This document shows positions 1 through 22,879 of a DNA stretch of 64,000 nucleotides, piece by piece. The position numbers and the translations under genes were made by a program. Source of the stretch: a virus; IMG/VR virus record IMGVR_UViG_3300045988_023906. One strand, written 5' to 3'. The notes below the pieces were generated by a model, which saw nothing but the letters and a program-made list of their open reading frames with translations, made no database searches and was not told the DNA's origin. Each line of letters starts with the position of its first letter. Position 1 is the first letter of the stretch.

Positions 1-336
1 TATAAAATGTCTCATTAATTTATAATCTAATTGAGGAATTTGCAATGTGTAAGTCTTTGCTTGACTTAACCCATATTCAGACAACTTATTACATAGATGT
101 TGGGAATATAAAGTCAAATTACAATAAGTTTGTTTATATAATCCAATGGGGTTATTAGCTTCTATACAAGATTTGAATTTTTCTAATATTTCTTTATCTT
201 GTTTATGTAATCTAAACTCTATACAACCTTTATCTACATGATTATATCCATCCGCTGCAAAGAATCCTAACCAATAAGCTTTTTCTTGACAATCTATAAT
301 ATCAAAATAATGTTCATTAAAATTATACTTTCTCAT
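1..336 (-). CDS. LAGLIDADG homing endonuclease (partial; C-terminus runs off the window start)
   Basis: Absent from the ORF track because there is no stop in the window. Manual translation from the ATG at 336 gives MRKYNFNEHYFDIIDCQEKAYWLGFFAADGYNHVDKGCIEFRLHKQDKEILEKFKSCIEANNPIGLYKQTYCNLTLYSQHLCNKLSEYGLSQAKTYTLQIPQLDYKLMRHFI. LGFFAADG is a LAGLIDADG motif. The gene has its own -7 box at 361-368. Confidence 0.75.
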   Translation of the reverse strand, partial: MRKYNFNEHYFDIIDCQEKAYWLGFFAADGYNHVDKGCIEFRLHKQDKEILEKFKSCIEANNPIGLYKQTYCNLTLYSQHLCNKLSEYGLSQAKTYTLQIPQLDYKLMRHFI

Positions 337-360
337 AATACATTGATTTATAATTCAATG

Positions 361-368
361 CAAAGATA
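361..368 (-). promoter_or_regulatory. Bacteroides-type -7 promoter box (TATCTTTG, within ATTTTACTTATCTTTGCA)
   Basis: The reverse complement of caaagata matches TAnnTTTG. It shares the extended motif seen at 22871, 24350, 34202, 47654 and 61708. It lies 25 nt upstream of the LAGLIDADG start. Confidence 0.55.
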
Positions 369-408
369 AGTAAAATTTCTCGTATCTCCAAATTAATAAA
401 TAAATTAC

Positions 409-1158
409 TTATTTTTCATATCTCCAATCTACAAAGGATTTATAGAAATCCCACTCTGTATGGGAACTTGTTTTCAAATCTACTGGCTTTGCCCACTTCT
501 CTTTATGATTGACTATGATTAAGTCAGCCATATTTCTATACTTTACACCATTGAACTCTCCTTTGAACTTCAACTGATAGAATCTTTCAATATCTGGTTC
601 AAATGGATTGTCCTCTGCAAAGTAGAATTGAGTGGATTTGCTCCCTTTCAATGCTCTTACTGCACTGCACACATCTTGATAGGTCTGAGTATCAAGTATA
701 GTCTTACTGCCTGCTATAAATAACAGGTTATAGTAGTCAGCTCCTTTCTCCTTGATAACTTTAGCCCTTGTCTCAGGCTTCCAGTTCATCTGATATCTCT
801 GATATTCAGTCTCCTTAATGATTGCATCATCAGGAATTGTGATAAGACTCCTATAAGAATCTCCATACTGACTGAACAAAGATTTTACCATCTTTGTAAT
901 AGAGTCTGGAGTAGAAGGAAACTCAGCAACCATAAACCTTTCATCAAACTCTTCTTGACCACCTGTGATAATACTGTCTACAGCACTACCAAAGGTAAGA
1001 GAAGGTGTTTCTAACCTGTCAAATAACTTATCCAAGTTATTGAATCCCTCCCTCTCATATCTTGCAAGGGTTGAATAGCTTAATGCTGAGTCCCTTCTAT
1101 ACTCCTCTTCTGTTATATTAAGAGATATATCAGATAGCTTTTTCTTGATTGTATTCAT
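409..1158 (-). CDS. PD-(D/E)XK family nuclease (RecB/Cas4-like exonuclease fold)
   Basis: 249-aa ORF. The C-terminal ADLIIVNHKEKWAKPVDLKTS fits the D...(D/E)xK nuclease signature. It sits in a replication-module context. Confidence 0.55.
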   Translation of the reverse strand: MNTIKKKLSDISLNITEEEYRRDSALSYSTLARYEREGFNNLDKLFDRLETPSLTFGSAVDSIITGGQEEFDERFMVAEFPSTPDSITKMVKSLFSQYGDSYRSLITIPDDAIIKETEYQRYQMNWKPETRAKVIKEKGADYYNLLFIAGSKTILDTQTYQDVCSAVRALKGSKSTQFYFAEDNPFEPDIERFYQLKFKGEFNGVKYRNMADLIIVNHKEKWAKPVDLKTSSHTEWDFYKSFVDWRYEK

Positions 1159-1169
1159 AGAAAAAAATA

Positions 1170-1433
1170 TTATTTCTCTGGGTCATATATTCCTAGTCTC
1201 ATGCAATATATATCTACCGTAGACTTTAAAGATAAAAGGTTATCAATATCTACTGACATTAAAGGGCTGCTTACATCCCCTATAGTCTTAGCCCTTTTAA
1301 CTTTATACACTGCTGAGTTAACTAAATCTTGTAAAAACTCAAAATTTCTTTCTCTTATGAATTTATTTGCCAATTCAATATCTTTTGTGGGAAGTGCATA
1401 TATAAGCCTCCCAATATCAGTCAGTATTCCCAT
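1170..1433 (-). CDS. hypothetical protein
   Basis: 87-aa ORF on the same strand as the flanking genes and tightly packed with them. The antisense ORF 1201-1461 is rejected. Confidence 0.4.
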   Translation of the reverse strand: MGILTDIGRLIYALPTKDIELANKFIRERNFEFLQDLVNSAVYKVKRAKTIGDVSSPLMSVDIDNLLSLKSTVDIYCMRLGIYDPEK

Positions 1434-1971
1434 AATTTCTAATTATATTTATAGCTTGTAAGAGCTGCTTCTTAGTATACACTTCAAAGTATATACTTTT
1501 TTGTCCTGTACTATTATATATGTCATCAAGTAGCTTTCTAAACATTTTTTTCTTATAAGGAAATACATCATTGGTAAATCCTTTACATTCTATCCAAATG
1601 TCCAAATTATTATATCTTACATATATATCAGGAGTATATGTAATGGGCTGAATTAGCCCATTACATAGTCTAAGTTCCTTACTACTTTGCCTACCTAAAG
1701 ATTCAACCCTTTTCTTCTGTTGTGTATCAGTCTCTTTATCATAAAAGGGAGTTATGGGAACAAAAGAAGGAAAAAGGATGAATTTCTTTGGTTCATATTT
1801 AGGAGCAAATCCATGTTCTTCAAGACAAGTAAAACATGTTTTCTCTAATATACTTTTGAAAGTTATATTCTTAGCAGCACATACAGTAGCATTCCTAATC
1901 TTCTTATTTTCCACTTTTGAACATTTCCTTAAGAATATCTTTTGTAATTTTGCAGGCAATCTTCGCATCAC
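1417..1971 (-). CDS. putative PD-(D/E)XK endonuclease (endonuclease I / resolvase-like)
   Basis: 184 aa. YTPDIYVRYNNLDIWIECKG matches a PD...E.K catalytic core. Confidence 0.5.
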   Translation of the reverse strand: MMRRLPAKLQKIFLRKCSKVENKKIRNATVCAAKNITFKSILEKTCFTCLEEHGFAPKYEPKKFILFPSFVPITPFYDKETDTQQKKRVESLGRQSSKELRLCNGLIQPITYTPDIYVRYNNLDIWIECKGFTNDVFPYKKKMFRKLLDDIYNSTGQKSIYFEVYTKKQLLQAINIIRNYGNTD

Positions 1972-2458
1972 TTATAGACCTGAATGCTGCAAAGTTCCTA
2001 TAGTTCTTGATATGAGCCTTATTAGCCTTGGTAATTCTACCATCAAGCATAGAGATTACATAAATCTCAGGACTCTCCTCAATATGGTCCTCATACTTCT
2101 TGTCCAACTCAATGGCTACTTCTCTAAGTACCATAGAGAATGCAGCAGCAGGAAGAATACTATCTACACTGTTAAGGTAGTTATAGACCTTCTCCATCTT
2201 CCAACCAAGTTTCTCTGCAATCTTCTGAATGTAGTACTCCAACTCCATAGGAACCTCAGATTCAACCACAGCAGACTTTGCAGGCTTGGTAGTAGTAACA
2301 ATGCCAGCCTCAAGGAGTTTAGGAAGAATGTCCTTAGTCACTACAATGTGCTGAGCTACAATGCTCTTACCAAAGAAGGAGTCTTTCACTTTAGATACTT
2401 TAGTCAGAGTGTCTCCAATCTGTACTTCCTTACCATTTGTCAAATAAATCTTTTCCAT
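1904..2458 (-). CDS. hypothetical protein
   Basis: ORF 1904-2491. I prefer the internal Met (MEKIYL, 2458) because it avoids overlapping the UDG stop at 2473. Confidence 0.5.
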   Translation of the reverse strand: MEKIYLTNGKEVQIGDTLTKVSKVKDSFFGKSIVAQHIVVTKDILPKLLEAGIVTTTKPAKSAVVESEVPMELEYYIQKIAEKLGWKMEKVYNYLNSVDSILPAAAFSMVLREVAIELDKKYEDHIEESPEIYVISMLDGRITKANKAHIKNYRNFAAFRSISDAKIACKITKDILKEMFKSGK

Positions 2459-2472
2459 TTTTTTGTTTAATA

Positions 2473-3150
2473 TTAATACTCTTCGTACCATTTTATAGGC
2501 ACACCATAAATCCCTTTTACCTTATTACTTATATCAACAAATAGCTGATGTGGTATCTTAGTACCACTCCTTGCAAAATATGCAGGATGTTCAATCTCTA
2601 TAATATGATTGAACCTATCATTAATATAAGGTTTGAAGGTTTGGGCTTGTCTGCCAAACAATACATATACTATAGCTGTATTATATTCAGACAAGTTCTT
2701 TAGCAATTTAGCTATGAAAGGTCTCCACAACATCACATGGGAACCTATCCTATTCATTTCTACAGTGAGTGCAGAGTTTATCATTAGTATTCCTTGTTTA
2801 GACCAACTCTCAAGAGAGTTGTCAAAGGTAATACAATAATGTGGAACTTCAAAATTAATTGCTGCTTCTTTAACAACATTTAATGAAGGAGATAAGTTAT
2901 CCTCATCAACTTCCTTTCTATTCCCAAATAATACTCCAGTTGCCACTCCCTTTTGTGGATAAGGGTCTTGACCTAACATAACTACTTTCAAGTCATTGAG
3001 AGGACAAAGCTCAAATGCTCTGAATACATCAGATTGGGCAGGACACAATGGTTTCCTCCTGTATTCTTGCCCAACCTTAGCCATTACATTATTAAGCTCT
3101 GTCCTATCAATTACCTTCATCCAATCTCCAAAGTATTCATCTAATGTCAT
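2473..3150 (-). CDS. ung: uracil-DNA glycosylase (family 1 UNG)
   Basis: 225 aa. GQDPYP is the water-activating loop motif (canonical GQDPYH). LLGNR/LNS-type motifs and a C-terminal EHPAYFARS (HPSPLS-like) are also present. Confidence 0.85.
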   Translation of the reverse strand: MTLDEYFGDWMKVIDRTELNNVMAKVGQEYRRKPLCPAQSDVFRAFELCPLNDLKVVMLGQDPYPQKGVATGVLFGNRKEVDEDNLSPSLNVVKEAAINFEVPHYCITFDNSLESWSKQGILMINSALTVEMNRIGSHVMLWRPFIAKLLKNLSEYNTAIVYVLFGRQAQTFKPYINDRFNHIIEIEHPAYFARSGTKIPHQLFVDISNKVKGIYGVPIKWYEEY

Positions 3151-3917
3151 ATCAACATCATTATGTCATCAATATTGTCAATAAGGCATTCATTCAGTGC
3201 ATCATTAGAGCAGGCAGATGGGGTAGGTTTAATAGGTTCTATAAAGAACTTATTGAAATTATCTACTATGACCTTTACTTTCCTGTCCTCTGGATTACTG
3301 CTGAAACTGTAATTGTTTCTTGGGAAATTTACATCCCTACTTGTATAATAGGGAATCAATTTCTTGATGATGCCTTTATTAATCAACTTATCAGATTCTA
3401 AGAATACTTTGGGACTGACATGGCACACAGGTCTGTAATAGACCATAGTATTACCATTATCCTCAGTATGCACACTTCTTGCAGTTAATGTACATAATAG
3501 TAATGGAGTGTAGCTCTCATCAAAGATGATACCTTTACCACCATAATACACTTCACCCTTATTGGCAGTTATCTTCTGCAATCTTTTACCATATCCTACA
3601 TTAGTAAATAATTGAGTTATGATACTATTAAAGGTTCTTCTCTCTTGGCTTGGTGCATTATCATATAATGGCAGTATTATCCTCTTGATTCCCATAATTG
3701 TGGGATAAGCCATATTGTCTGAGACCAGCTTTTCAAAGTGTTCTCTTGCAATCACAGGTATCTCTACCTCATCATTGTTTACTTCAATGACAAGGCTTCT
3801 TCTAAATACATTGTTACTATCAAGAGACAGATTCATTCCAAGTTGGTCTGAATCACCAAACTCACTGTCATTGAAAACACCCATTACATCATATGCAAAT
3901 CTTGGGTTAAATTCCAT
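3147..3917 (-). CDS. hypothetical protein (last gene of the E1/JAB overlapping operon)
   Basis: 256-aa ORF. Its start overlaps the stop of the E1-like gene (3917) and its stop overlaps the UDG start by 4 nt. Confidence 0.6.
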   Translation of the reverse strand: MEFNPRFAYDVMGVFNDSEFGDSDQLGMNLSLDSNNVFRRSLVIEVNNDEVEIPVIAREHFEKLVSDNMAYPTIMGIKRIILPLYDNAPSQERRTFNSIITQLFTNVGYGKRLQKITANKGEVYYGGKGIIFDESYTPLLLCTLTARSVHTEDNGNTMVYYRPVCHVSPKVFLESDKLINKGIIKKLIPYYTSRDVNFPRNNYSFSSNPEDRKVKVIVDNFNKFFIEPIKPTPSACSNDALNECLIDNIDDIMMLI

Positions 3918-4855
3918 TATACTTCAGTTTTAAGATACATTGTTTCTGCATTATATGTGGTAAGGAATGGCAGGTCTCTATCAATGAGAGGCTCACATTG
4001 ATTAGCACAGAAGTTTACAAACAAATTAACCATATAAGATGCAATCATATTTGCACAGAAGGTAGTTTGTTTATAGGAGCAGATAGTTTCATCAGCTTCT
4101 GCATCAGAGAATAGGAACTCATTATTGTACCTATTGATGTTGTACTCATCATCTCCCTTGATACACAATACCTGAAACTCTTCTGCTGCTAATCTGCCAT
4201 CAATAAATAAGCAATTCTTTCTCTCCTCTTCTGGTTTGGATTGAACATGATTTACCCATTTATTAAAGAAGAGTCTTCTTGCTGCCATATTATCAAAGCC
4301 ACAAATCATAATGTCTGATGCTTCAGATTCATTGGTAAATCTCTCATTTATTGCAAAGACACTGCTATAGCCAGCATAGTTTCTAATCATCTCAGCCAGT
4401 GCAGATACTTTAGGTCTACCTAAATCAGATTGACCATATAACTGACCTGACATATTGACAGCTTCTACTATGTCATCATCATAGATAAACATAGAAGCTG
4501 GCTTCATTCTTGCCAATAAAAAGCCTACATAACTACCAATACCACCTACACCTGCCAAAATGACAGTCTTCTTCTGAATGTTCTCATACCAAATGGCAGA
4601 ACTAAACCTACTTGTAGCTTCATCCACAAGCAAAGTTGCAGAGTTTGTAGGTATCTCTTGATGTGCATCTTCTACAGCTTGGTCAAGGATAGCCTGTTCT
4701 TCTTCTGAAAGTCCAGAGCTAATACTATCACCATCATTTTCCATAGGATTATCTGATTCAGGCATAGTACTCTCATTGAGGTCCTCTATAAAAGAATTAT
4801 AAGCTTCCTGTGAAGTTGCAGAAAGGCTTTCTCGGGCTGTTACTTCTTCATTCAT
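3917..4855 (-). CDS. E1-like / ThiF-MoeB family adenylyltransferase
   Basis: 312 aa. It has an acidic N-terminal tail, then a Rossmann segment KKTVILAGVGGIGSYVGFLLARM (GxGxxG). That is followed by D-rich DDD..NMSGQ, as in ThiF/MoeB/E1 nucleotide-binding folds. Confidence 0.65.
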   Translation of the reverse strand: MNEEVTARESLSATSQEAYNSFIEDLNESTMPESDNPMENDGDSISSGLSEEEQAILDQAVEDAHQEIPTNSATLLVDEATSRFSSAIWYENIQKKTVILAGVGGIGSYVGFLLARMKPASMFIYDDDIVEAVNMSGQLYGQSDLGRPKVSALAEMIRNYAGYSSVFAINERFTNESEASDIMICGFDNMAARRLFFNKWVNHVQSKPEEERKNCLFIDGRLAAEEFQVLCIKGDDEYNINRYNNEFLFSDAEADETICSYKQTTFCANMIASYMVNLFVNFCANQCEPLIDRDLPFLTTYNAETMYLKTEV

Positions 4856-6066
4856 AATATTAAATACTTTTGAAGTGCATCAATATACTCTTTGATATAA
4901 TCATTTTCAGGGAGTTTTGTAAGCTCCTCTATCATATCATGGGCACAAATAGCACAAATTTCTGTTTCATCAAAGCCAAGCTCTTCCAACTTCTCATCTG
5001 TCACATACCATGTCAGATATTCTACATAGGTATCTGCCCACATTTTGAAATTTTTCATGCCTTCTTCACCCTTGCCAAATCTCTTTTCATACAATGCAGG
5101 CATTGACTTAGCCCATTTGGTAATGTCAATCTTACTATCATTAGAAATGATAATACTACCTGTAATCAATTGAAGTACAAGAGATTTCAAAGTAACCTTA
5201 TCAAATGATACCTGACCATAGGGTAGACTGTAGTTATCATCAAATGGCAAGTCATCTATATCATCAAAAAGAGTTGGCTGAACCACCTTAGGCTTATCAG
5301 CTTCCTTCTTGACAGGATTTGCTGAACCTGCCTTTGTACCATAGAAATTAGCAATAACAGGCTTATAACCACCTTGATATGTAGGTGTCTGAGCTTTCTT
5401 GGCTTTCTCTGCCTTAGCTTGCTTGATTTCTTCAAGTCTTGCATCCATATCAGGGAAAGAGTAGTTTTCACCCTCTTTCTCTATCTTGAGATAGAACCAT
5501 TCAATTTCTTCTATCCCATCTTGAGTATATTCCCTTGTATCTTGTTTTTCTCCATCACCAAAGAACTCATATACTAACATGTCCTTAATTTGACTATATC
5601 TTTTTACTCTCCTGGTAATGGCGGCAGTATAAGTACCTGCATTATTGACAATGAGAGATACAAAGTTATTCCTATCCCTACCCTCTTCCTTCAAGGTGGT
5701 AGTATCAGTACCACTGAAGAATGTGGACATATTGTTATGACTGTGGATAAGACCCATCTGGCAGTCAAGCAACTCAGGGTTATCACACATATATGCTATT
5801 ACATCAGGATTCATGTCAAACTCTGTGTAAGCCTGTGTGCCAATATCCATGATATAAATGTCTACACACTTGATTACAAGGTCATTATTCTCAAATGAGC
5901 CTTCATGTGTGAAGAATAATGTACCTGACCATTCAGTACTCCACACCTTTTGGCAGGCAAATCTTATCTTTCTCTCCACTTCTGCTGGGATAATCAGCTT
6001 ATAATTATAAGTACCTGACTTCTGTACCAAGCTGATTACTTTCGTGGGTTGCTTTGTTTCTTCCAT
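4852..6066 (-). CDS. JAB/MPN (JAMM) metalloprotease-domain protein with a long C-terminal extension
   Basis: 404 aa. An upstream Glu (STEWSG) plus GLIHSHNNMSTFFSGTD gives the JAMM motif E...HxHx7Sx2D. Confidence 0.75.
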   Translation of the reverse strand: MEETKQPTKVISLVQKSGTYNYKLIIPAEVERKIRFACQKVWSTEWSGTLFFTHEGSFENNDLVIKCVDIYIMDIGTQAYTEFDMNPDVIAYMCDNPELLDCQMGLIHSHNNMSTFFSGTDTTTLKEEGRDRNNFVSLIVNNAGTYTAAITRRVKRYSQIKDMLVYEFFGDGEKQDTREYTQDGIEEIEWFYLKIEKEGENYSFPDMDARLEEIKQAKAEKAKKAQTPTYQGGYKPVIANFYGTKAGSANPVKKEADKPKVVQPTLFDDIDDLPFDDNYSLPYGQVSFDKVTLKSLVLQLITGSIIISNDSKIDITKWAKSMPALYEKRFGKGEEGMKNFKMWADTYVEYLTWYVTDEKLEELGFDETEICAICAHDMIEELTKLPENDYIKEYIDALQKYLIL

Positions 6067-7306
6067 ATCTGTAGTTTAACACTTTAAGAATTATATTTAA
6101 TATATACAGTGCAGTCTGAGTATTGAGTATTATACTCTTGTTCTCATTCCTCACTTCTGCAATATCTGTAATATCTACAGTTATCTCTCTTCCCTTGAAT
6201 ACACACACTTTCTTGCCTATATACTGAGCATAATTATTTACATTATTCCTGCCCCTATCATAGTAAATCTTCCCATTGTCTATGATACACTCTCTCAAGA
6301 TATCATGTCTCTTCAAGTCTGCAAATTTAGCAGTCAATTCCTCCTTATTGAATTGGTCATTATACCATTTAATGAACTTATTACTAATAAGTACAATAAA
6401 TTCAATGAGTGACATACCAATAGAATAAGAGCCATTGACATAATTAAATTTGAGTTTCTTAGAGCTAATAAAGTACCTTACAAACTCCCTGAATTTATCA
6501 GAAGTAATGACACTTTCATAGTAATTAGGAGACAGAAATGTAATGAATCTATCTACACCTACTTCCATATCATTGGTACCTAACTTCTCCAAGTAATTAT
6601 AAGGCACTCCAGCAACAGATTCTACAGTCACATACTTACTCAGTTCAAGGCAGAACATATTCCACATATCCTCATCATAATCCCTATTGAGGGCACTAAT
6701 AGTACCATTAATAGGACCACTGCCTGTACAAGGATCTTGGAATTGGGTGAAATCCCCTGTAGGGATACTACTGATATGACTGTGCATGTAATGACTTCTG
6801 ATGTGAAGCAGGGTATACTCTGACCTGTTAAGTGTGAATCCTCCATTCAGTGTACCATTATAAGACACCTTTACTTTAGCCCATAAGTGATTAATATCCA
6901 CAAATCTATTATGCTCATTAGTCACTCTTACATGAGGGAAATGCACAAGTATGAATATGTCATTGAACTTAGCATTACCAATTCTTTCCTTTACTGTAGT
7001 ATTTGTAAGCACATTTACAACCTTTTCTACCTGGTCTCCAGGTAAATCAGTAATAGACCATGTTTTATACATGCTCCAGTCATTCATGTTCATGCTTACA
7101 ATATTACCATCAGGAATATAAGTAGATAAAGGCTCTATATTCATCCAAGATTTGAACTTGTCCAAACTCCAATATCCTTGCATATCAACTTTATCCTCTC
7201 CAAAGAAATCATTGAATATGCCTAATACTCGAAGTGGCTTGTCCATCAAGGAGTTATATAGTTCCTCTATCTTCTCCTCAATTAATTTAATTGTTTCTCC
7301 ACTCAT
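6005..7306 (-). CDS. hypothetical protein (first gene of the E1/JAB operon; possible E2-like HxH...PC segment)
   Basis: 433-aa ORF overlapping the JAB gene by 62 nt. It contains YMHSHISSIPTGDFTQFQDPCTGSGP. No confident family assignment. Confidence 0.6.
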   Translation of the reverse strand: MSGETIKLIEEKIEELYNSLMDKPLRVLGIFNDFFGEDKVDMQGYWSLDKFKSWMNIEPLSTYIPDGNIVSMNMNDWSMYKTWSITDLPGDQVEKVVNVLTNTTVKERIGNAKFNDIFILVHFPHVRVTNEHNRFVDINHLWAKVKVSYNGTLNGGFTLNRSEYTLLHIRSHYMHSHISSIPTGDFTQFQDPCTGSGPINGTISALNRDYDEDMWNMFCLELSKYVTVESVAGVPYNYLEKLGTNDMEVGVDRFITFLSPNYYESVITSDKFREFVRYFISSKKLKFNYVNGSYSIGMSLIEFIVLISNKFIKWYNDQFNKEELTAKFADLKRHDILRECIIDNGKIYYDRGRNNVNNYAQYIGKKVCVFKGREITVDITDIAEVRNENKSIILNTQTALYILNIILKVLNYRYGRNKATHESNQLGTEVRYL

Positions 7307-7314
7307 ATTACTGT

Positions 7315-7356
7315 AAAAAAAATAGGTAAGGGGGTATCTCTACCCTCTTACCTATT
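7315..7356 (-). terminator. rho-independent terminator
   Basis: The minus-strand RNA reads AATAGGTAAGAGGGTA-GAGA-TACCCCCTTACCTATT followed by a U-run. That is a 16-bp stem with one wobble. Confidence 0.75.
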
Positions 7357-7364
7357 GTCTGTTA

Positions 7365-8021
7365 TTAATGAATACTCATTCCTTCAAACATATCATTAAT
7401 CTCATCATCAGAGTAAGGAGAAGCTGACTTAGGCTTATACTCCTCAGATGGTGCAACTTCTACTGCACCCCCAAGGATGTCAAGTACTTCATCCTTCTCA
7501 TAATATTCAATTGTGCCATTGTCCTCAAGAATTTCCACCAACTTGCTGATAGCAGCTCTTGCTACAGTATCAACACACTCACCACCATTACTTGCAGGTG
7601 CTACAGGAGCAGGCTTTGAAGCACCATTACTCTGTACCAATGCAATAAGGTCAGCAGTCTTACACATAGTGAAGTTTTTGCCAAACTTCTTAAGGCAAGC
7701 ATCTTGAAGACCCCTTCTCTTGATTTCAGCATATGCCTCCATTCTACTCATTGCGCCAGACCTAATTTTCTTGTTGGTGTTAGTAAGCATGAAAACCAAC
7801 TCATTGGTGACAATTCCCTTATAAGGAACATCATGTGGCAGAACTGAAGCATCATTCTTCAATTCAACCTTTGATGTACCTTCAAAGAAGGTCATACCAC
7901 CATAGTCAATACCATTGGCTCTCAGGTCACTTTTCAACTCAGCAAGGGTCGTGGCTGCTGACATAATAACACTCTTCTTCTGATTCTTAGTCTGTACGAC
8001 TGTAATTTTTCTTGCTTCCAT
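7365..8021 (-). CDS. hypothetical protein
   Basis: 218-aa ORF followed by a strong terminator. No motif recognised. Confidence 0.6.
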   Translation of the reverse strand: MEARKITVVQTKNQKKSVIMSAATTLAELKSDLRANGIDYGGMTFFEGTSKVELKNDASVLPHDVPYKGIVTNELVFMLTNTNKKIRSGAMSRMEAYAEIKRRGLQDACLKKFGKNFTMCKTADLIALVQSNGASKPAPVAPASNGGECVDTVARAAISKLVEILEDNGTIEYYEKDEVLDILGGAVEVAPSEEYKPKSASPYSDDEINDMFEGMSIH

Positions 8022-8061
8022 GTTTTCACTTTTTTTTTTATAAATTGAACTTATTGAAACT

Positions 8062-9102
8062 TTAATCTATACAAAAGGGCAAATCATTCCAATCATTGTC
8101 CTCTTGTCTTGAAGAGATGAATAAAGGCTTGATTATTCTAAGGAACTCATCTTTGCCCTTAGCCTTATACAAGTCTGAAATATCTTTCCCTTCATTAAAG
8201 GGTGGCAATACTACATTAGTAAATCCTGTTTCCTCAGCTAACTTCTGAGCATCTTTCAATCCTGGCTCATCATTATCCAAGCAAATGAAGACTTGTTTAT
8301 ATCTTCTTTTCAGTTCACTAATTGCAGTATCACTCATCCTATATCCCTCACCCTGTATTGCAAGAGAGGGTATTCCTGTGTTAGCCCATAGACATAAAGC
8401 ATCTTTCAATGAGGAGCAAATGCAAATTTGCTCTCCATATTCAGGTACTTTAGTCCATAGACTTACCACAGAAGTGTCATGTTTATTACTCCATTTATAA
8501 CCACCTTTGTTAAATGGCTGATAGATTTTGAGAGTAACCTTACCTTCCTTATGTTCTACATAAGCATAGGCATATCTGTCAGCTCCAAATACATACTTAT
8601 TACCATCTTTGATGACAATCTTACGTGATATTGGATAAACTTCTGCATACTTCAGCCAGTCAAGACTTATTCCATAGGATGCCCAATACTCAATATCATG
8701 AGGTGCCCAATCTCTGACTTTACATTGCAGCTCTGTATTATTGAGCTTGAAAATCTCAGGAGTTAAGTGTTGCTTTGAAGTATTTATACCTAGGTCTTTT
8801 GTACTGAACTTAGAAATATCATGAGCTATCTTGGCAAGAGCTTCTATATAATTGCATCCCCACAACTTGCAAAGAATATCAAAAGTATTTCCTCTGTCCT
8901 TAGTTGCAAAGTCTACATAGTAGACTCTATGCCCATCTCTGGAATAAAGTCCAAAGGAAGCCTTATTATCTATTCTTAAAGGAGAATGAATTACACAGGG
9001 AATTTCTGTAACTCCAAGATAATAAGCTAAAATATCTGCTTCTGTAGTTTTACTTAGAATATCATCTAAAGTCACAGAAGGATTACTCTTGCCAATAGCC
9101 AT
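8062..9102 (-). CDS. DNA primase (Toprim domain, DnaG-like)
   Basis: 346 aa. ICSSLKDALCLW and VFICLDNDEPGLKDAQKLA (DxD) fit Toprim. It lies upstream of the helicase genes. Confidence 0.65.
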   Translation of the reverse strand: MAIGKSNPSVTLDDILSKTTEADILAYYLGVTEIPCVIHSPLRIDNKASFGLYSRDGHRVYYVDFATKDRGNTFDILCKLWGCNYIEALAKIAHDISKFSTKDLGINTSKQHLTPEIFKLNNTELQCKVRDWAPHDIEYWASYGISLDWLKYAEVYPISRKIVIKDGNKYVFGADRYAYAYVEHKEGKVTLKIYQPFNKGGYKWSNKHDTSVVSLWTKVPEYGEQICICSSLKDALCLWANTGIPSLAIQGEGYRMSDTAISELKRRYKQVFICLDNDEPGLKDAQKLAEETGFTNVVLPPFNEGKDISDLYKAKGKDEFLRIIKPLFISSRQEDNDWNDLPFCID

Positions 9103-9123
9103 AACTGTTTAGTTTAAAAGTTA

Positions 9124-10047
9124 TTATTTACCAAAATCCCAAGGAGAAGACTCTTCTGCCTTAGGGAAAGGCATGTCACTTGAGCCTAAGTTGTTGAAGT
9201 CAGTAGCTTCTACAGTATATTCTCTAAAGGGTTTAATATCATACTCCACATTAGAGAATGCTCCGGCATTCTTTCTTTCTTGTAAGTCCTTATCTATTTC
9301 ACTGTAATTTCTTGCTCCATTTCTAAGTACTTTGTTAGTATATACTACCTGATATTGTTTTCCATCCTCAGTAGTTCTTACTCCAAACATCACCTTGACT
9401 TTATTCTTAGGCATAAGCTTAGGAACTTCATTAAGTTCAGAGAAATCTCCCTTAAACAGCTTATCCATATCAAGGGAACATTCACACTCCTCCATGTTAG
9501 CTACTTTGGGGTTCTTAACCCATTCACCATTAACATAGGAAAGTGCTTCATCAAAATTAAGATAGCTCTTAATAAATTCAATAAGTTGTATTTCTCCATT
9601 ATAGGCAGGCCTGTATTCAGTAGTAATTCTAAGGGCTTTACCAGTGCTACTTTTAAGAGTCGCTTTATTTTTCAGGTCCTCTGGGGTAGCCCAAGCACTA
9701 TAACCATATTTATCAATTACTTGTACCTTAGTTTTGTCTCTATTATACCTATAGGATTTATCTACAAAGAAAGTCATAGGAATAATTATATCTCCCTCTA
9801 CATCTGGTTTGACATAGAAAGTAACCATAACTTGAGGTACATTCTTACCATCTACCTCTCTTTCTCTCAGATATTCAGGCTCAGAGTCTATTTCTGCATT
9901 CAACAGTTTATTTCTTTCTTCTTTTGTGGGATTAACTGCTAAAACATATACAGGAGAAGCACCAATATACCTCTTAATACTTCCACCTTCTTTACTCTCT
10001 ACTGCTTTACCAAAAGCCATAAAACTAAAATTAATATTTTTATTCAT
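9124..10047 (-). CDS. hypothetical protein
   Basis: 307-aa ORF in the replication module. No motif recognised. The antisense ORF 9355-9942 is rejected. Confidence 0.6.
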   Translation of the reverse strand: MNKNINFSFMAFGKAVESKEGGSIKRYIGASPVYVLAVNPTKEERNKLLNAEIDSEPEYLREREVDGKNVPQVMVTFYVKPDVEGDIIIPMTFFVDKSYRYNRDKTKVQVIDKYGYSAWATPEDLKNKATLKSSTGKALRITTEYRPAYNGEIQLIEFIKSYLNFDEALSYVNGEWVKNPKVANMEECECSLDMDKLFKGDFSELNEVPKLMPKNKVKVMFGVRTTEDGKQYQVVYTNKVLRNGARNYSEIDKDLQERKNAGAFSNVEYDIKPFREYTVEATDFNNLGSSDMPFPKAEESSPWDFGK

Positions 10048-10105
10048 TTCTATTCAATTTATTTAATTTTACTTCTTGTTATTTTATTGCTTGTTCTTAA
10101 TGAAC

Positions 10106-10552
10106 TTAGTAAGGGAGATTGTTAGGAAAGGGAGAATCTCCCTCTGCCTTGACCTCTACTTCAGGTGCCTTCTCGGCATCATCTACTGTCTCAGGAGCAA
10201 CATTGTCAATAGCAGGCTCCTCTACATGAATTTCATATACATTAGCCCCCTCATTGAACACTACTACACCAGCCTTAGGTTCATACTTAGTAACCTTTAC
10301 AGGCTTACCATCCTTATCAACCTTACCAGTATCTTCTACCTTCTTGACAACCAAGTCTTCACTTGTGAGACCACCTGTCAAAGCCTTGACACCCATCTCA
10401 TGTCCCTCAATCTCCTCAGTCAGGGCATTATACTCTGCATTGAGTTCATCAATCTTGGCAGCAATCTTATTCTTCTTCACTACCAAAGGATTAACATTCT
10501 GTGCAATTCTTTTTACACCTGCAAACTGTCTTACTGTTAATGTCTTATTCAT
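10106..10552 (-). CDS. hypothetical protein (coiled-coil, acidic C-terminus)
   Basis: 148-aa ORF. Two overlapping plus-strand ORFs are low-complexity and are rejected. Confidence 0.55.
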   Translation of the reverse strand: MNKTLTVRQFAGVKRIAQNVNPLVVKKNKIAAKIDELNAEYNALTEEIEGHEMGVKALTGGLTSEDLVVKKVEDTGKVDKDGKPVKVTKYEPKAGVVVFNEGANVYEIHVEEPAIDNVAPETVDDAEKAPEVEVKAEGDSPFPNNLPY

Positions 10553-10674
10553 AATTATTTCTCTTAATATAATAAAATAATTCTGTTATTACTACTTATA
10601 ACATCCGTAATTGGCTATTTATATTAAATGGGGTAATATTATATACTTGATTACCAAGTTCTATTGTCTTTTCC

Positions 10675-11355
10675 CTATCCATAATATTCCTTCATAGCTT
10701 TCACTACTACTCCTAAATCATTAGGGATAAAGTCCTCCATAAACATATCAGCAGGAGACTTAGCAGGAATTTCTACCATACCATCCATGAATCTGTGAGT
10801 ATAAAAGCCATAAGTAGCTGCGCCTTTATCATCATATTTAATAGATGAATACAGCACCATAGGTACAACCTCTACAGGATTATATTGATTATCAATCAGT
10901 TGGCCAATTGTACTAACCTTATATCCTACAGTAGTCTTATCACTCTGGACATCCTCACTATGAAGAATTAAGAACACATTAATATCCTCTCTCATAGATT
11001 CTATAGTAGAAATAATCTGTTGAAAGTGCATAGCCAACTCTGTATATTTACCATATCCAGTCTCTTTGGCCCTCTTGAAATATTCCTTCCTCATAATATA
11101 GATAGCATCATCTATAATGATATTATGAACATAGGAAGCATTCTTATCTATACCTTGAAGCATATTAATAGCCTGTGTATAATCATCTATCCTGAATAGA
11201 TTCTTATTTTCTTTATTATATAGACTACTACTACCTTTAAAAGGTAATTTTTTACCTAAAACATTTAATATTACAGTTTCTTTAGGGTCTAACCCCTTAA
11301 TACTAGAACTTTTTCCTGTTCCACTTTTTCCTAAAAGGATTACTGCATTTGCCAT
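10675..11355 (-). CDS. P-loop NTPase (RecA/Sak4-like small ATPase)
   Basis: 226 aa. Walker A is LLGKSGTGKSS and Walker B is NIIIDDA. Confidence 0.7.
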   Translation of the reverse strand: MANAVILLGKSGTGKSSSIKGLDPKETVILNVLGKKLPFKGSSSLYNKENKNLFRIDDYTQAINMLQGIDKNASYVHNIIIDDAIYIMRKEYFKRAKETGYGKYTELAMHFQQIISTIESMREDINVFLILHSEDVQSDKTTVGYKVSTIGQLIDNQYNPVEVVPMVLYSSIKYDDKGAATYGFYTHRFMDGMVEIPAKSPADMFMEDFIPNDLGVVVKAMKEYYG

Positions 11356-11378
11356 TGTTTTTGTTTTATATGTTACTT

Positions 11379-12614
11379 TTACTTGAAAAGGGCTGCAAAC
11401 TTATGAAATATTTTCCACCTGTGCAACTTTCTATTCATTTTATTTATTCCATAACTAAAGAAAGTCTTAGCAGTTTTGCTTTTCCTTGATTCCATATAGT
11501 TATATACTCTCTGTAATGCTTCTCTATCATTAGGTCTTGGGAGTTCATAAAATGTACTCACCGCACCATCAAAGAATAAAGGACAGATTTGACCATTTGC
11601 TCCATAGTCTCTATCTTCAATCACCTCCATGAACCTTATATGGTTCCTGAACTTGGTTATATCATATCCTTCATACTCTCTTAGTCCATACTTGAATGGA
11701 CTATAGAGACCTATAACCATATTGGCATCTCTGGTAGTAGTCTTACAATCTGCAAGACCATCAGAAGATGGTTTAAGCTTATTCAGCTTTTGGTTCTCAA
11801 TACCCTCTTGAGCCTGTGCTTGATGCTGAATCAATACAAAGATGAATTTCAATTGATTTCTGAGAGTAATACCATACTTGCTCATCTTATCAATAGTTTC
11901 CATCTTCTTTAATCCACTTTCAAGAGATAGATTCGAGGCATTATCTATGATGATTATCCTCCTCTCCTCTGGGTCATCTGGGGTATAAGGATTGTCATTG
12001 TCTACCACATCTGCATCTATGATTTCATCTGTGATAGGGTCTTTCCTCTTACCTTTCTTGAAGTTAAGATGTCCATGAGTTAAGGCATAGTCCCTACAAT
12101 ACTTATTGATTCCTGTGGGGTTCCTTTGGTCATCAATATACTCAACCATATCCTCGAATGCCTTGATATATCTCTGATACTTATCAGATTCAAGTAATTC
12201 AAGAATCTTCTCATCAATAGGATGGTCTCTATCTGTACTTTTCAGTTCAGTGGGAGATGCCTCTATTCCATCCAATCTAAACAATAGATGACACAAGAAC
12301 TCATTGTACTTTTCCTCTGGACTCATCTCCAAAGTAAAGTAAAGAACCTTAACTCTCATCTCAGGATGCTCCAATATAAAGAACAATGGTTCATATACAA
12401 ATAGGTAATCACAGAACTTTGATTTACCTACCTTTTGATTGGCAGTCACCACTATGAACTTAGCAGTTTCAATGCCTGGAACCCATGCTCTAAATCTTGG
12501 AAAAGGAAAAGGGATACAATTATAAAGTCCATTAAGAACTCTCTCTCTCCTTAACCTCAGATTTCCCATTACTTGCTTAAATCTACTCATAATCAGGTAA
12601 TTGTAGAAGTCCAA
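11379..12614 (-). CDS. DnaB-like replicative helicase (RecA-type C-terminal domain)
   Basis: 411 aa. Walker A is TANQKVGKSKF and Walker B is RIIIIDNASNL. A downstream LIQHQAQ segment is present, and the gene is adjacent to the primase and ATPase. Confidence 0.65.
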   Translation of the reverse strand: MDFYNYLIMSRFKQVMGNLRLRRERVLNGLYNCIPFPFPRFRAWVPGIETAKFIVVTANQKVGKSKFCDYLFVYEPLFFILEHPEMRVKVLYFTLEMSPEEKYNEFLCHLLFRLDGIEASPTELKSTDRDHPIDEKILELLESDKYQRYIKAFEDMVEYIDDQRNPTGINKYCRDYALTHGHLNFKKGKRKDPITDEIIDADVVDNDNPYTPDDPEERRIIIIDNASNLSLESGLKKMETIDKMSKYGITLRNQLKFIFVLIQHQAQAQEGIENQKLNKLKPSSDGLADCKTTTRDANMVIGLYSPFKYGLREYEGYDITKFRNHIRFMEVIEDRDYGANGQICPLFFDGAVSTFYELPRPNDREALQRVYNYMESRKSKTAKTFFSYGINKMNRKLHRWKIFHKFAALFK

Positions 12615-20944: not shown

Positions 20945-21175
20945 TTAGTCCATTAAGTCCCATAAATAAGATTCATACTCACATGCAATTTCCTCATAAG
21001 TTAGTTTGGCTTCCTCTAAATATTCTGAGAGAAAATTACTTACTTGTTGGAAATTGTTAATATCACCATTGTATGTGACATTAAGCCACTTTTCACAAAA
21101 GTGAACAGCAGCTTTCTGTTTATCTGTAGTCATATTTGATTGTTTTTTAGGTATATTTCTAGTTTTTACATTCAT
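20945..21175 (-). CDS. hypothetical small protein
   Basis: 76-aa ORF. Confidence 0.4.
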   Translation of the reverse strand: MNVKTRNIPKKQSNMTTDKQKAAVHFCEKWLNVTYNGDINNFQQVSNFLSEYLEEAKLTYEEIACEYESYLWDLMD

Positions 21176-21286
21176 AAATTATTGCTGCTGCCAGTATTAT
21201 TAAAGTACAAATTATATGTATTGCTAACATAGTATTCAGTAAATATAGCTATAAAATTATATATGTTGTTGCTTATAACACAAGGT

Positions 21287-21324
21287 AAAAAAAAGGTATA
21301 AGGTAGGAGATTTACCCTCCCACC
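21287..21324 (-). terminator. rho-independent terminator
   Basis: The minus strand reads GGTGGGAG-GGTAAAT-CTCCTACC followed by UUAUACCUUUUUUUU. Confidence 0.6.
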
Positions 21325-21344
21325 CTATAGTTCTCTTTCAGCTA

Positions 21345-21626
21345 TCAGATAGAAACTCTATTAATATCTGACTCACCTCCCTTCTCCAATGTGAGAAGTT
21401 TAGCCTTGGTCAAATCAATAGATTCTCCAACTCCTACAGTAGCATCATTAGCAAGAGGAATATAAGTCTGTCCTCCTCCTACCATCATAAAGCAAACTGA
21501 GTTGCCATATTGTGATGGTACTACTGTTGCAGACTCTACTGCCTGAATTTCTTCCTGAGTAAATGCTCGTGAAGATTTAATACTCCATTTTCCTGCATAA
21601 GTTCTGAGAGTTGAGAAAATGTTCAT
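21345..21626 (-). CDS. hypothetical 93-aa protein, paralog A
   Basis: MNIFSTLRTYAGKW...VVPSQYGNSV...KAKL.TL.K.GESDI.RVSI aligns along its full length with ORF 22073-22354. Confidence 0.55.
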   Translation of the reverse strand: MNIFSTLRTYAGKWSIKSSRAFTQEEIQAVESATVVPSQYGNSVCFMMVGGGQTYIPLANDATVGVGESIDLTKAKLLTLEKGGESDINRVSI

Positions 21627-21730
21627 ACAAACTTACCAATGCCCTTTGGATTTATCTTGGTATCTGGCACACCTGTTAAATGATAAATGATAAATGCTAA
21701 AATGCAACTATTGTGGAGTTGCAAAGGCAC

Positions 21731-21746
21731 AGGAGGAGTAATGAGC
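21731..21746. repeat. AGGAGGAGTAATGAGC motif, copy 1 (minus-strand reading GCTCATTACTCCTCCT)
   Basis: Exact 16-mer shared with 21804-21819. Near-copies lie at 22417-22431 and 22686-22698. Confidence 0.7.
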
Positions 21747-21803
21747 TATACTAATATCACATATATGATATAACTGATAACTAACCTCAGTGTGTCAAGA
21801 ACA

Positions 21804-21819
21804 AAGGAGGAGTAATGAG
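21804..21819. repeat. AGGAGGAGTAATGAGC motif, copy 2
   Basis: Exact copy of 21731-21746. Confidence 0.7.
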
Positions 21820-21826
21820 CCATGCT

Positions 21827-21839
21827 GATAATATATTGC
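21827..21839. repeat. ATAATATATTGCT direct repeat, copy 1
   Basis: Identical 13-mer at 21977-21989. Confidence 0.6.
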
Positions 21840-21872
21840 TGTAATAGAGCTTTGAGATAATAGTTATGAGAT

Positions 21873-21889
21873 AATAATATTGCTTCTAC
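21873..21889. repeat. ATAATATTGCTTCTACC direct repeat, copy 1
   Basis: Identical 17-mer at 21960-21976, 87 bp away. Confidence 0.7.
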
Positions 21890-21959
21890 CTTGCCATTCT
21901 TTATACAATATAATCATTGTCTTGAAGAGGATAATAATAGTCTTGATTATCTCTATCAC

Positions 21960-21989
21960 CATAATATTGCTTCTACCATAATATATTGC
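21960..21989. repeat. second copies of the 17-mer (21960-21976) and the 13-mer (21977-21989), adjacent to each other
   Basis: Read directly: ATAATATTGCTTCTACC followed by ATAATATATTGCT. Confidence 0.7.
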
Positions 21990-22020
21990 TTTTGCAATAC
22001 CTTGCTGAAACCAGATAGGA

Positions 22021-22049
22021 TAAAAATAAAAGTGAGGGAAGACCCTCAC
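22021..22049 (-). terminator. rho-independent terminator
   Basis: The minus strand reads GTGAGGG-TCTT-CCCTCAC followed by UUUUAUUUUU, directly after paralog B. Confidence 0.75.
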
Positions 22050-22072
22050 CTTTATAATTTATAAGGCAAGTA

Positions 22073-22354
22073 TTAGATACTTACCCTATAAATATCACTC
22101 TCACCTGACTTACCTAAAGTCACAAGTTTAGCCTTAGTTAAATCAACCAATTCACCAGAGCCAAGAGTACTATTCTGGTCTAGTGGAATATAGGTCAATC
22201 CACCACCAACCATAGTGAACTGAACAGAATTACCATACTGAGAAGGTACAACAACAGCCTGAACTACAGCCTTAATTTCCTCTTCAGTAAACTCTCTAGT
22301 GGATTTAACTTCCCATTTACCTGCATAAACTCTCAAAGAACTAAAGATATTCAT
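22073..22354 (-). CDS. hypothetical 93-aa protein, paralog B
   Basis: Full-length similarity to 21345-21626, roughly 60 percent identity by eye. Confidence 0.55.
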   Translation of the reverse strand: MNIFSSLRVYAGKWEVKSTREFTEEEIKAVVQAVVVPSQYGNSVQFTMVGGGLTYIPLDQNSTLGSGELVDLTKAKLVTLGKSGESDIYRVSI

Positions 22355-22389
22355 AATATAGGTATGGTTGACCTAAGCACCAAAAGGTT

Positions 22390-22397
22390 CAAAGTTA
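22390..22397 (-). promoter_or_regulatory. Bacteroides-type -7 box (TAACTTTG)
   Basis: The reverse complement of caaagtta. It lies 36-43 nt upstream of the paralog B start. Confidence 0.45.
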
Positions 22398-22416
22398 ATA
22401 ATAAATTCAAATAATA

Positions 22417-22431
22417 AGGAGAAGTAATGAG
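22417..22431. repeat. AGGAGAAGTAATGAG motif, copy 3 (one mismatch)
   Basis: It is preceded by CAAATAATA, as is copy 4. Confidence 0.6.
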
Positions 22432-22650
22432 TTATTTAAGGTTTTCCTTAGCCTCATAATACTCATAAGGGTCAAATCTATCAACCCAGTTATCATAGTG
22501 TTCTAATGTATCAAGGAATGATTCAGTAGCATTATAATAGTCTCTGTAAGGTTGTACTTTATTAATGTCAGAGTACCAGATGCCAAAGGTAAATCCTATA
22601 GCCAAGACAATGAGAACACAAGGAATGATAAGCAATAAATCTTTCTTCAT
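22432..22650 (-). CDS. small membrane-anchored protein
   Basis: 72 aa with an N-terminal TM helix, LLIIPCVLIVLAIGFTFGIW. Confidence 0.45.
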   Translation of the reverse strand: MKKDLLLIIPCVLIVLAIGFTFGIWYSDINKVQPYRDYYNATESFLDTLEHYDNWVDRFDPYEYYEAKENLK

Positions 22651-22685
22651 TTTAGTAAGTTTTTAATGTTAGTAATCAAATAATA

Positions 22686-22698
22686 AGGAGGAGTAATG
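22686..22698. repeat. AGGAGGAGTAATG motif, copy 4
   Basis: It is preceded by CAAATAATA. It lies 36-48 nt upstream of the ORF 22432-22650 start on the minus strand. Confidence 0.6.
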
Positions 22699-22842
22699 TA
22701 TCATTTCAACTCCACGGGGGTATATCCCAATCTCAAAAACTATGGGGGAGTGATGAGGTTATTATACCCCACTCCTAGAAATATAATAGAAAAAAAAATT
22801 AGAAAAAAAAAATTATTTTCTGTGCAGTAAATTTTTCATTTA

Positions 22843-22850
22843 TATATTTG
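22843..22850 (+). promoter_or_regulatory. Bacteroides-type -7 box (TATATTTG)
   Basis: Matches TAnnTTTG. It is the first of two tandem boxes opening the plus-strand arm. Confidence 0.45.
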
Positions 22851-22870
22851 CATATATCAGATTTTTTACT

Positions 22871-22878
22871 TACCTTTG
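22871..22878 (+). promoter_or_regulatory. Bacteroides-type -7 box (TACCTTTG, within TTTTACTTACCTTTGCA)
   Basis: The extended motif TTACTTACCTTTGCA recurs at 24345-24359, 34197-34211 and 47649-47663. A variant lies at 61703-61717. Confidence 0.6.
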
Positions 22879-22879
22879 C

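Follow-up and report, generated by a model that had tools for sequence, protein, structure and literature searches.

A crAss-like phage cassette that pairs a ThiF/E1-type enzyme and a JAB/JAMM peptidase with a candidate ubiquitin-like tag

Results and Discussion

A cassette of crAss-like phages in which the gene for a JAB/JAMM peptidase stands next to that for a ThiF/E1-type enzyme was analyzed in a 64,000-nucleotide stretch of viral DNA, referred to here as the window (IMG/VR virus record IMGVR_UViG_3300045988_023906). The cassette has five parts and is more than a four-gene unit: the overlapping genes A, B, C, and D are joined by the N-terminal domain of an upstream gene, X. In our preferred reading, to which we assign a probability of roughly 0.5, this is an accessory phage cassette in which the JAB peptidase encoded by B releases a ubiquitin-like (Ubl) tag from the X protein and the E1-like enzyme encoded by C activates it. 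The window derives from a crAss-like phage of the Steigviridae/Asinivirinae type. Its gene order is that of crAss001 and its kin, and it shares 80% nucleotide identity with bajarodcaudo virus 1. In crAss001, the counterparts of A, B, C, and D are gp78, gp77, gp76, and gp75, respectively, and that of X is gp79. The parts of the cassette and their immediate neighbors are the following.

7755..8021, minus strand: candidate tag, the N-terminal domain of gene X (codons 1-89), which ends K84-K-I-R-S88-G89
7365..7751, minus strand: remainder of X at the C-terminal end (codons 91-218 plus stop), a small resident protein of the replication module
7315..7356, minus strand: intrinsic terminator or attenuator between X and A, a 16-bp hairpin plus T-run
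6005..7306, minus strand: gene A, 433 aa, a virus-only protein family
4852..6066, minus strand: gene B, 404 aa, predicted JAB/JAMM metallopeptidase with a helical C-terminal domain
3917..4855, minus strand: gene C, 312 aa, predicted ThiF/E1-like adenylation domain
3147..3917, minus strand: gene D, 256 aa, fast-evolving and always the last cassette gene
2473..3150, minus strand: uracil-DNA glycosylase (UDG), family-1-like (Pfam UDG, expectation value (E) 3.8e-12), a neighbor outside the cassette

Gene X as a whole runs from 8021 to 7365 on the minus strand, encodes 218 aa, and lies directly upstream of the terminator. An original prediction, made by a model from the sequence alone, had described four genes of 433, 404, 312, and 256 aa with overlaps of 62, 4, 1, and 4 nt. 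The list of open reading frames confirms both the genes and the overlaps, which run along A-B-C-D-UDG, so that D and UDG are coupled by the final 4 nt. Bajarodcaudo virus 1 and crAss001 also have the 62-nt overlap of A and B (6005-6066); it reaches 80 nt in Dulem virus 41 and 125 nt in Flavobacterium phage FpV4. The last ~15 residues of A, which are encoded within the overlap, are predicted to be disordered.

The JAB/JAMM and ThiF/E1 Genes

Judged by its motif and profile matches, B is a JAB/JAMM peptidase. The N-terminal JAB/JAMM domain covers approximately residues 25-165 (5572-5994), and the C-terminal domain behind it is helical and conserved. The stretch HSHNNMSTFFSGTD spans H108 to D121, with E45 upstream; the corresponding HSH-x7-S-x2-D motif is encoded at 5704-5745 and E45 at 5932-5934. 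Across 15-17 divergent sequences, with those of FpV4 and Dulem virus 41 among them, no variation is seen at E45, H108, S109, H110, S118, or D121. Every one of the 15 divergent family members searched matches Prok-JAB (best E 2.4e-6), and no other family is matched consistently; the B protein of the window, taken alone, scores 19.6 bits, under the Pfam cut-off of 25. The family profile also matches JAMM1 of P. furiosus (5LD9/5LDA; E 0.006), which is the closest solved relative. These data bear out the complete JAMM motif that had been reported for the 404-aa protein, and with it the JAB assignment.

In Flavobacterium phages Fpv1, Fpv2, and Fpv20, the match to the JAB gene is broken into two pieces, and the ~1.5 kb that separates them holds an annotated endonuclease. 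PHROGs likewise splits the B family (21448, 16107) at residue ~105/107, directly before the HSH motif. The split in these phages is probably due to the insertion of a homing element into the active-site region of the gene.

Gene C, as assigned from profile and alignment evidence, is a ThiF/E1-type enzyme. It scores 64.5 bits against Pfam PF00899 (ThiF), where the cut-off is 28.1, and hhalign pairs residues 82-196 with E. coli ThiF at 94.6% probability, in agreement with what had been proposed for the 312-aa protein. The best solved-structure relatives of the family profile are UBA5, MccB, TcdA, and PaaA. The protein begins with an acidic, variable extension (residues 1-70), which is followed by the adenylation domain at approximately residues 80-300 (3956-4618). 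The motif ILAGVGGIGSYVG is invariant among divergent relatives, and a GxGGxG motif is encoded at 4535-4552. In an alignment of 18 sequences, G102-x-G104-G105-x-G107, K149, and D188 are invariant and align with their ThiF counterparts, D188 falling at the position of the Mg-binding D127 of ThiF. R83, which pairs with ThiF R8, is invariant as well, as are C185 and C259; from its conservation, Cys259 possibly has a catalytic role.

In GenBank, one finds "metalloprotease domain containing protein", "thiamine biosynthesis protein", and "E1 enzyme family protein" as labels of the two recognizable genes; crAss001 and its relatives carry the annotations 'thiamine biosynthesis protein, ThiF' and 'metalloprotease domain containing protein'. 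Taken at their word, these labels would make C an enzyme of thiamine biosynthesis and B an unrelated metalloprotease. The best NCBIfam matches of C are indeed ThiS-adenylyltransferase (ThiF) models. However, the equivalog cut-offs are widely missed (67.7 bits, as compared to a cut-off of 159), and no thiS, thiG, thiH, thiC, or thiE gene is found near the cassette. C was therefore rejected as the ThiF of a thiamine pathway. The Zn-binding CxxC motifs of ThiF were not found in C, which also lacks a ThiF arginine that is considered below, and the ThiF-like gene is strictly linked to the JAB gene. A role in thiamine biosynthesis is scarcely credible.

Several other features of the C family were recorded. 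The N-terminal extension is hypervariable: it is absent in the cr85-like clade and measures ~70 aa in the window, and in the crAss001-like and L060-like clades it reaches ~140 aa and includes a hydrophobic segment that is conserved. Group I introns and homing endonucleases usually target constrained sites, and two such introns were found in this region of related genomes. One (L018:8655-8916) lies within the ThiF gene near codon 286, and the other (L003:9572-9788) splits UDG exactly at the catalytic motif GQD|PYP. Both match Rfam RF00028, with 76.9 bits for L018 and 79.3 bits for L003 against a cut-off of 50, and each contains an open reading frame with a LAGLIDADG-type motif. Xanthomonas phage PhiXhv-12 (L175), a 227-kb jumbo phage, carries a compact ThiF-like gene beside topoisomerase genes. 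Its product scores 56 bits against C, has N-L-P-N-Q at the arginine motif, and keeps a cysteine that aligns with C259. Three genes upstream of it (features at 1754-2176 and 4947-5630), a 140-aa protein ends ...LKLTAIAKASGG, a Ubl-like C-terminus. The neighbors of this gene were considered as a parallel module and rejected, as they are unlike A, B, D, and X and have no Pfam matches.

Gene X and the Candidate Tag

The first ~89 residues of X form a conserved domain that ends K-K-I-x-S-G. Among 150 representatives clustered at 50% identity, G89 is 100% conserved and S88 is 98% conserved. The residue after G89 varies, and the linker to the invariant R93 measures 2-9 aa. The C-terminal part of X consists of a helical region and an acidic tail (...SPYSDDEINDMF...). 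Two sister phages without the cassette, IAS virus and cr116_1, encode stand-alone proteins directly after primase, gp029 (85 aa) and gp081 (82 aa), that are homologous to the C-terminal half of X only (E ~2e-14). Both begin MSRKE, which aligns with M91-S92-R93 of X, two residues past Gly89, and the N-terminal domain of X is absent from both proteins. Because the stand-alone sister proteins start beside Gly89, X is a fusion of a resident protein, X-C, with an N-terminal domain that occurs only where the cassette does. The alignment places the seam of this fusion at the invariant Gly89.

UBA52 and RPS27A have a tag fused N-terminally to a resident protein that also exists alone, and a cut after the last glycine of the tag yields both products. 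The layout of X is that expected for a tag that is released by a peptidase after its last Gly, and type I Bub, Bil, and TAPI of lambda, described below, provide precedents. The likeness to UBA52 and RPS27A is an analogy for X only and implies no evolutionary link, and the cleavage of X is predicted. We infer that X(1-89), with a putative beta-grasp fold, is the best candidate for a Ubl tag. The original prediction saw no obvious Ubl ending in Gly-Gly. This observation stands in that the tail of the candidate is Ser-Gly; the candidate itself, upstream of the terminator, had been missed.

Insertions occur elsewhere in the X family. In the X homologue of cr126_1 (L173:3984-4907), a ribosomal protein L7/L12 C-terminal domain is inserted in the variable C-terminal part (Pfam E 5e-12; NCBIfam L12 E 2.6e-9), which one would not expect in a protein of a phage replication module. 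In cr106_1 and cr112_1, HNH endonuclease genes are annotated beside or overlapping the matches to X and primase, and X of cr106_1 is matched over residues 1-102 only.

Distribution and the Exchangeable Slot

The order X-A-B-C-D is kept in every IMG/VR locus that spans the cassette (about 80), as well as in six Steigviridae genera, Dulem virus 41, and FpV4. Because gene order is identical in all loci examined, the cassette is not a chance assembly. The 74 GenBank phage records that contain X are exactly those that contain B, with the same organism breakdown, and D is present in 82 of the 82 loci examined. The E1-JAB pairing, on whose conservation in related phages the original prediction depended, is strictly conserved. 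The adjacency to UDG, on which that prediction had also drawn, is not fixed: in FpV4, UDG sits on the opposite side of the cassette, flanked by primase and X. This arrangement shows that X stays with A-D and that UDG does not.

The phages without the cassette provide the complementary observation. Paundivirus (IAS virus) and Pamirivirus (cr116_1) have the same primase, at 49-60% identity, and no A, B, C, or D was found in any reading frame of IAS virus or cr116_1. The slot that runs from primase or X-C to UDG is occupied in one of three ways. It holds the E1/JAB cassette, or rIIA and rIIB in IAS virus and cr116_1 (PHROG E 1e-17 to 1e-35), or, in cr108_1 and Cellulophaga phage phi14:2, a set of ATP-grasp, COOH-NH2 ligase, amidotransferase, and gamma-glutamyl-cyclotransferase genes. 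rIIB overlaps UDG by 4 nt, the same coupling as that of D. The primase-to-UDG interval is thus a hotspot of cassette exchange in Asinivirinae. Since other gene sets occupy the same slot, the cassette is accessory and swappable and does not belong to core replication. The original prediction placed the operon inside the replication module, which holds for its position between primase and UDG but not for its status as a replication unit. In IAS virus and cr116_1, the primase gene lies in two pieces, and rIIA of cr116_1 is split by an intron-encoded endonuclease.

rIIA and rIIB are classical anti-exclusion genes, and their presence in the same slot makes a role for the cassette in host takeover or counter-defense more likely than one in DNA replication. 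This conclusion is drawn from location, and A, D, and X have no similarity to rIIA or rIIB. The slot also bears on a rival explanation in which B strips host Ubl conjugates, such as those of type II cyclic-oligonucleotide-based antiphage signaling systems (CBASS), Bil, or Bub, and C interferes with or hijacks host Ubls; the N-terminal domain of X would then not be a substrate. That sister genera fill the slot with rIIA and rIIB is in keeping with such a function, as are the weak PADLOC matches of C to Cap2-type E1-E2 proteins and to BilD. These matches, however, are limited to the Rossmann part of C (residues ~90-180 and <=44 bits for the E1-E2 models), and B has no PADLOC match. Direct action on host conjugates would also leave unexplained why the N-terminal domain of X is gained and lost with the cassette, why its boundary falls at an invariant Gly, and why A and D are needed. 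We consider this explanation quite unlikely.

A second rival is a sulfur-carrier pathway. X(1-89) would be a ThiS/MoaD-like protein that is adenylated by C and converted to a thiocarboxylate, A, with its His/His/Cys/Glu cluster, would use that sulfur to build a thio-compound, for instance a cofactor or a modified nucleotide, and B would do no more than mature the carrier. ATP-grasp/amidotransferase gene sets have been linked to metabolite or base modification, and it is such a set that occupies the slot in cr108_1 and phi14:2; the cassette, moreover, sits among nucleotide-metabolism genes. The ThiS-adenylyltransferase models that are the best NCBIfam matches of C fit this pathway, as do the invariant cysteines of C. 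JAB proteins are also found beside ThiS/MoaD-like proteins, or in fusions with them, in sulfur-assimilation operons (PMC1779556). Nevertheless, no rhodanese, cysteine desulfurase, or PP-loop sulfurtransferase is present in the cassette or fused to C, and the ThiF equivalog score of C is the 67.7 bits given above against 159. The tail of the putative carrier is Ser-Gly and not Gly-Gly, and rIIA/rIIB, the other occupant of the slot, is not metabolic. On balance, a sulfur-carrier pathway appears unlikely.

Terminator and Expression

On the coding strand upstream of A, the sequence reads AATAGGTAAGAGGGTA-GAGA-TACCCCCTTACCTATT, followed by TTTTTT. The hairpin occupies 7356..7321 and the T-run 7320..7315, which ends ~10 nt ahead of the ATG of A at 7306. 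The terminator previously placed at 7315-7356 is thus confirmed as a hairpin and T-run read on the minus strand. Of 16 lineages, 14, among them that of FpV4, have an equivalent GC-rich hairpin with a run of 7-9 T residues between X and A. Since the hairpins of different lineages are unrelated in sequence, structure and position are what is conserved. A scan of positions 1-12000 of the window against Rfam detected no RNA family. In the window, there is no space for a promoter between the terminator and the start codon of A, and read-through, at levels below that of X, is therefore the simplest way for A-D to be expressed. This layout fits an abundant substrate, X, followed by catalytic enzymes, A-D. 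RNA sequencing of crAss001 assigns replication functions to the middle transcriptional module (PMC8375218).

The terminator is also relevant to a chemistry of the MccB/PaaA/TcdA type, in which C would adenylate a C-terminus or a nucleotide to give a small product, such as a peptidyl-nucleotide, a cyclized peptide, or a modified base, with X as precursor and with processing by B and A. Operons for ribosomally synthesized and post-translationally modified peptides typically consist of a precursor gene, an attenuator, and then enzyme genes, and the conserved terminator between X and A matches this layout. The top matches of C among solved structures include MccB, PaaA, and TcdA, and the loss of the canonical arginine of C hints at non-canonical chemistry. 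The matches to MccB and PaaA, however, span the shared Rossmann core only. X(1-89) is a conserved, probably folded domain of 89 aa, not a short leader-plus-core peptide, and JAB peptidases are untypical of such pathways. We regard this chemistry as very unlikely.

Genes A and D

The AlphaFold model of A, built from a 65-sequence alignment, has a predicted local distance difference test score (pLDDT) of 87 and a predicted template modeling score of 0.70. When the model was compared with 350,542 PDB chains using Foldseek, the best match had an E of 0.96 and a template modeling (TM) score below 0.12, and no E2 was among the matches. All matches in BFVD are uncharacterized proteins of crAss-like or other podophages. 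By sequence, A matches no family in Pfam (including the Prok-E2 families), NCBIfam, PADLOC, or the PDB sequences, and it is absent from cellular genomes, save for phage contigs that were binned into metagenome-assembled genomes. Residues N130, R161, Y173, H175, S176, H177, C193, G195, E229, S230, G233, and P235 are invariant from the window to FpV4, and these twelve positions give A the appearance of an enzyme. They include the motif YMHSH...DPC, invariant among divergent relatives, whose HSH...C loop is encoded at 6728-6784.

It was this segment that had suggested a possible E2-like active site in the 433-aa protein. C193, H175, and H177 are indeed invariant, and the pattern they form is not specific to E2 enzymes; canonical E2 enzymes have HPN-x8-C, with a spacing that differs from that of the His/Cys motif of A. 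The E2/UBC assignment was rejected at the level of the fold, as a confident model is without a match in the PDB.

Gene D offers fewer clues. Only Y124, G129, and D133 are invariant between clades, and no matches were found in Pfam, PHROGs, NCBIfam, PADLOC, or the PDB sequences. In homologue searches with A and D, there were, among the matches listed, only relatives of >85% identity.

Proposed Mechanism

The observations above allow us to propose a sequence of events for the preferred reading. X would be transcribed in excess, and read-through of the terminator would supply smaller amounts of A-D. B would cut X directly after Gly89, giving a tag with a free C-terminal glycine; the second product would be a C-terminal piece of the size of the stand-alone protein of the sister phages. 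C would then adenylate the freed glycine, using ATP. The activated tag would be transferred to an amine on a target protein, possibly via Cys259 of C, a step in which A and/or D would carry out the transfer or recognize the target. The modification could also be undone by B.

A more far-reaching form of this proposal can be put forward only tentatively. The cassette would be a complete Ubl pathway of the phage's own, with a fusion tag, release by the JAB peptidase, and a minimal E1 without the arginine. A would act as a transferase that lacks the UBC fold, and the pathway would be used offensively, for host takeover or counter-defense. We view this form as possible but doubtful.

Several observations weigh against tag release and activation, chief among them the missing arginine of C, the lack of an E2 fold, and the fold comparisons of the tag, which are not significant. 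The position of R70 in the N-x-x-R-Q motif of ThiF is occupied in C by G137, which lies within N-M-S-G-Q and is invariant in the family. This arginine is present in the aligned UBA5, MccB, and ThiF sequences, and nearly all ThiF/E1 enzymes keep a catalytic Arg; because it is missing in C, the chemistry may differ. The C-terminal half of C gives no usable alignment with ThiF that would place Cys259 on ThiF Cys184. An E2 fold was not found in A, and conserved Cys, Ser, or His residues are absent from D. As to the tag, the single-sequence AlphaFold model of X has a pLDDT of 40. Residues 6-56 of this low-confidence model follow a beta-beta-alpha-beta-beta order, which we treat as weakly consistent with a beta-grasp, and its Foldseek matches, which include GB1, FERM lobes, and a ubiquitin domain, are non-significant. 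In hhalign comparisons, X(1-89) pairs with ubiquitin, NEDD8, and SUMO at 0.1-0.2% probability and with ThiS at 0.2%, and its profile finds nothing in PDB, Pfam, NCBIfam, or PADLOC. The tail is Ser-Gly, not the Gly-Gly sought in the original prediction. The terminator could instead place X in the upstream transcription unit. Finally, a literature search found no experimental data on the cassette genes.

Comparison with Known Systems

By analogy, the cassette would work most like systems that combine an E1, a JAB peptidase, and a Ubl, namely, type I Bub, Bil, the E2-independent SAMP system, and TtuB. The type I Bub operons (6E.1; BubAB, BubCD, and BubE) share with it an N-terminal Ubl fusion, release by a JAB peptidase, and E1-like activation (PMC11601596). 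The cut that JAB makes in the BubAB Ubl fusion falls directly after a conserved Gly (PMC11601596). The differences are also clear. Bub has fusions of JAB to E1 and of the Ubl to E2, together with a DUF6527 serine protease, whereas the cassette has separate JAB and E1 proteins, a small replication-module protein as the fusion partner, no recognizable E2, and two virus-only proteins. Moreover, Bub operons are bacterial and probably defensive, whereas the cassette resides in a lytic phage genome.

Bil (BilABCD) and type II CBASS (Cap2/Cap3) resemble the cassette in coupling E1-type activation to a JAB peptidase. The Bil JAB protein pre-processes its Ubl and thereby exposes the C-terminal Gly (PMC10557695). 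Cap2 is an E2-E1 fusion, whereas C is a single compact adenylation domain of ~230 aa. An assignment of the cassette to Cap2/Cap3 of type II CBASS was rejected, as PADLOC matches C weakly and A, B, and D not at all.

The SAMP/UbaA/JAMM1 system and TtuB/TtuC of Thermus are alike in a different respect: they have a compact E1-like enzyme, a JAMM peptidase, a small Ubl, and no E2. Both are cellular systems, and their Ubls end in Gly-Gly and double as sulfur carriers. The cassette differs in its Ser-Gly tail, in a tag that is the domain of a fusion protein, and in A and D, which have no counterpart there.

Among phages, a parallel is found in the tail-assembly proteins I and K (TAPI and TAPK) of lambda and T1, in which a phage Ubl with a conserved C-terminal Gly is fused to a second domain and a neighboring JAB protein is predicted to release it (PMC1779556). 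TAPI of lambda consists of a Ubl domain and a C-terminal domain and is encoded beside the JAB protein (PMC1779556). These systems differ from the cassette in that they lack an E1-like enzyme, belong to the tail-morphogenesis module, and have a JAB domain fused to an NlpC/P60 peptidase. The PRTRC systems of plasmids and integrative and conjugative elements are likewise mobile cassettes with a ThiF-family protein, the JAB-like PRTRC_A, and small proteins. The cassette was rejected as a PRTRC system, since B scores 12.5 bits against 101.8 for PRTRC_A and C scores 34.9 against 144.75 for PRTRC_ThiF; A, D, and X have no match to the PRTRC models.

As judged by profile scores, the cassette lies outside every curated family tested, with the cut-offs for PRTRC, Cap2/Cap3, Bil, and the ThiF equivalogs all missed. 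What is new with respect to the known systems is the combination of two virus-only proteins, a minimal E1 that lacks the Arg, and a candidate tag fused to a resident phage protein.

Implications

In the library searched, no paper was found that discusses these genes of crAss-like phages, and a 2023 review of Crassvirales is silent on them. To our knowledge, Ubl conjugation in bacteria has so far been a weapon of the host against phages (type II CBASS, Bil, and probably Bub), and the phage uses of Ubl and JAB proteins that we know of are limited to tail assembly. If the preferred reading is correct, phages themselves use Ubl chemistry, and those that do so include phages that rank among the most abundant in the human gut. 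A testable function would be gained for four or five conserved "hypothetical" genes, A would represent a new enzyme fold, and C would be an E1 without the canonical arginine. The "thiamine biosynthesis protein" annotations in GenBank would also be corrected. The natural exchange of E1/JAB genes, rIIA/rIIB, and ATP-grasp amidoligases marks an accessory hotspot of Steigviridae that can be mined for more systems. Because the cassette is conserved, abundant, and present in cultured phages (crAss001, DAC15/17, and the PhiCrAssBcn series), it is directly testable.

On the scale of the whole window, GC skew and AT skew switch sign at ~22 kb (21000-23000). This is the point at which minus-strand genes give way to plus-strand genes, a divergent-module layout that is typical of crAss-like genomes.

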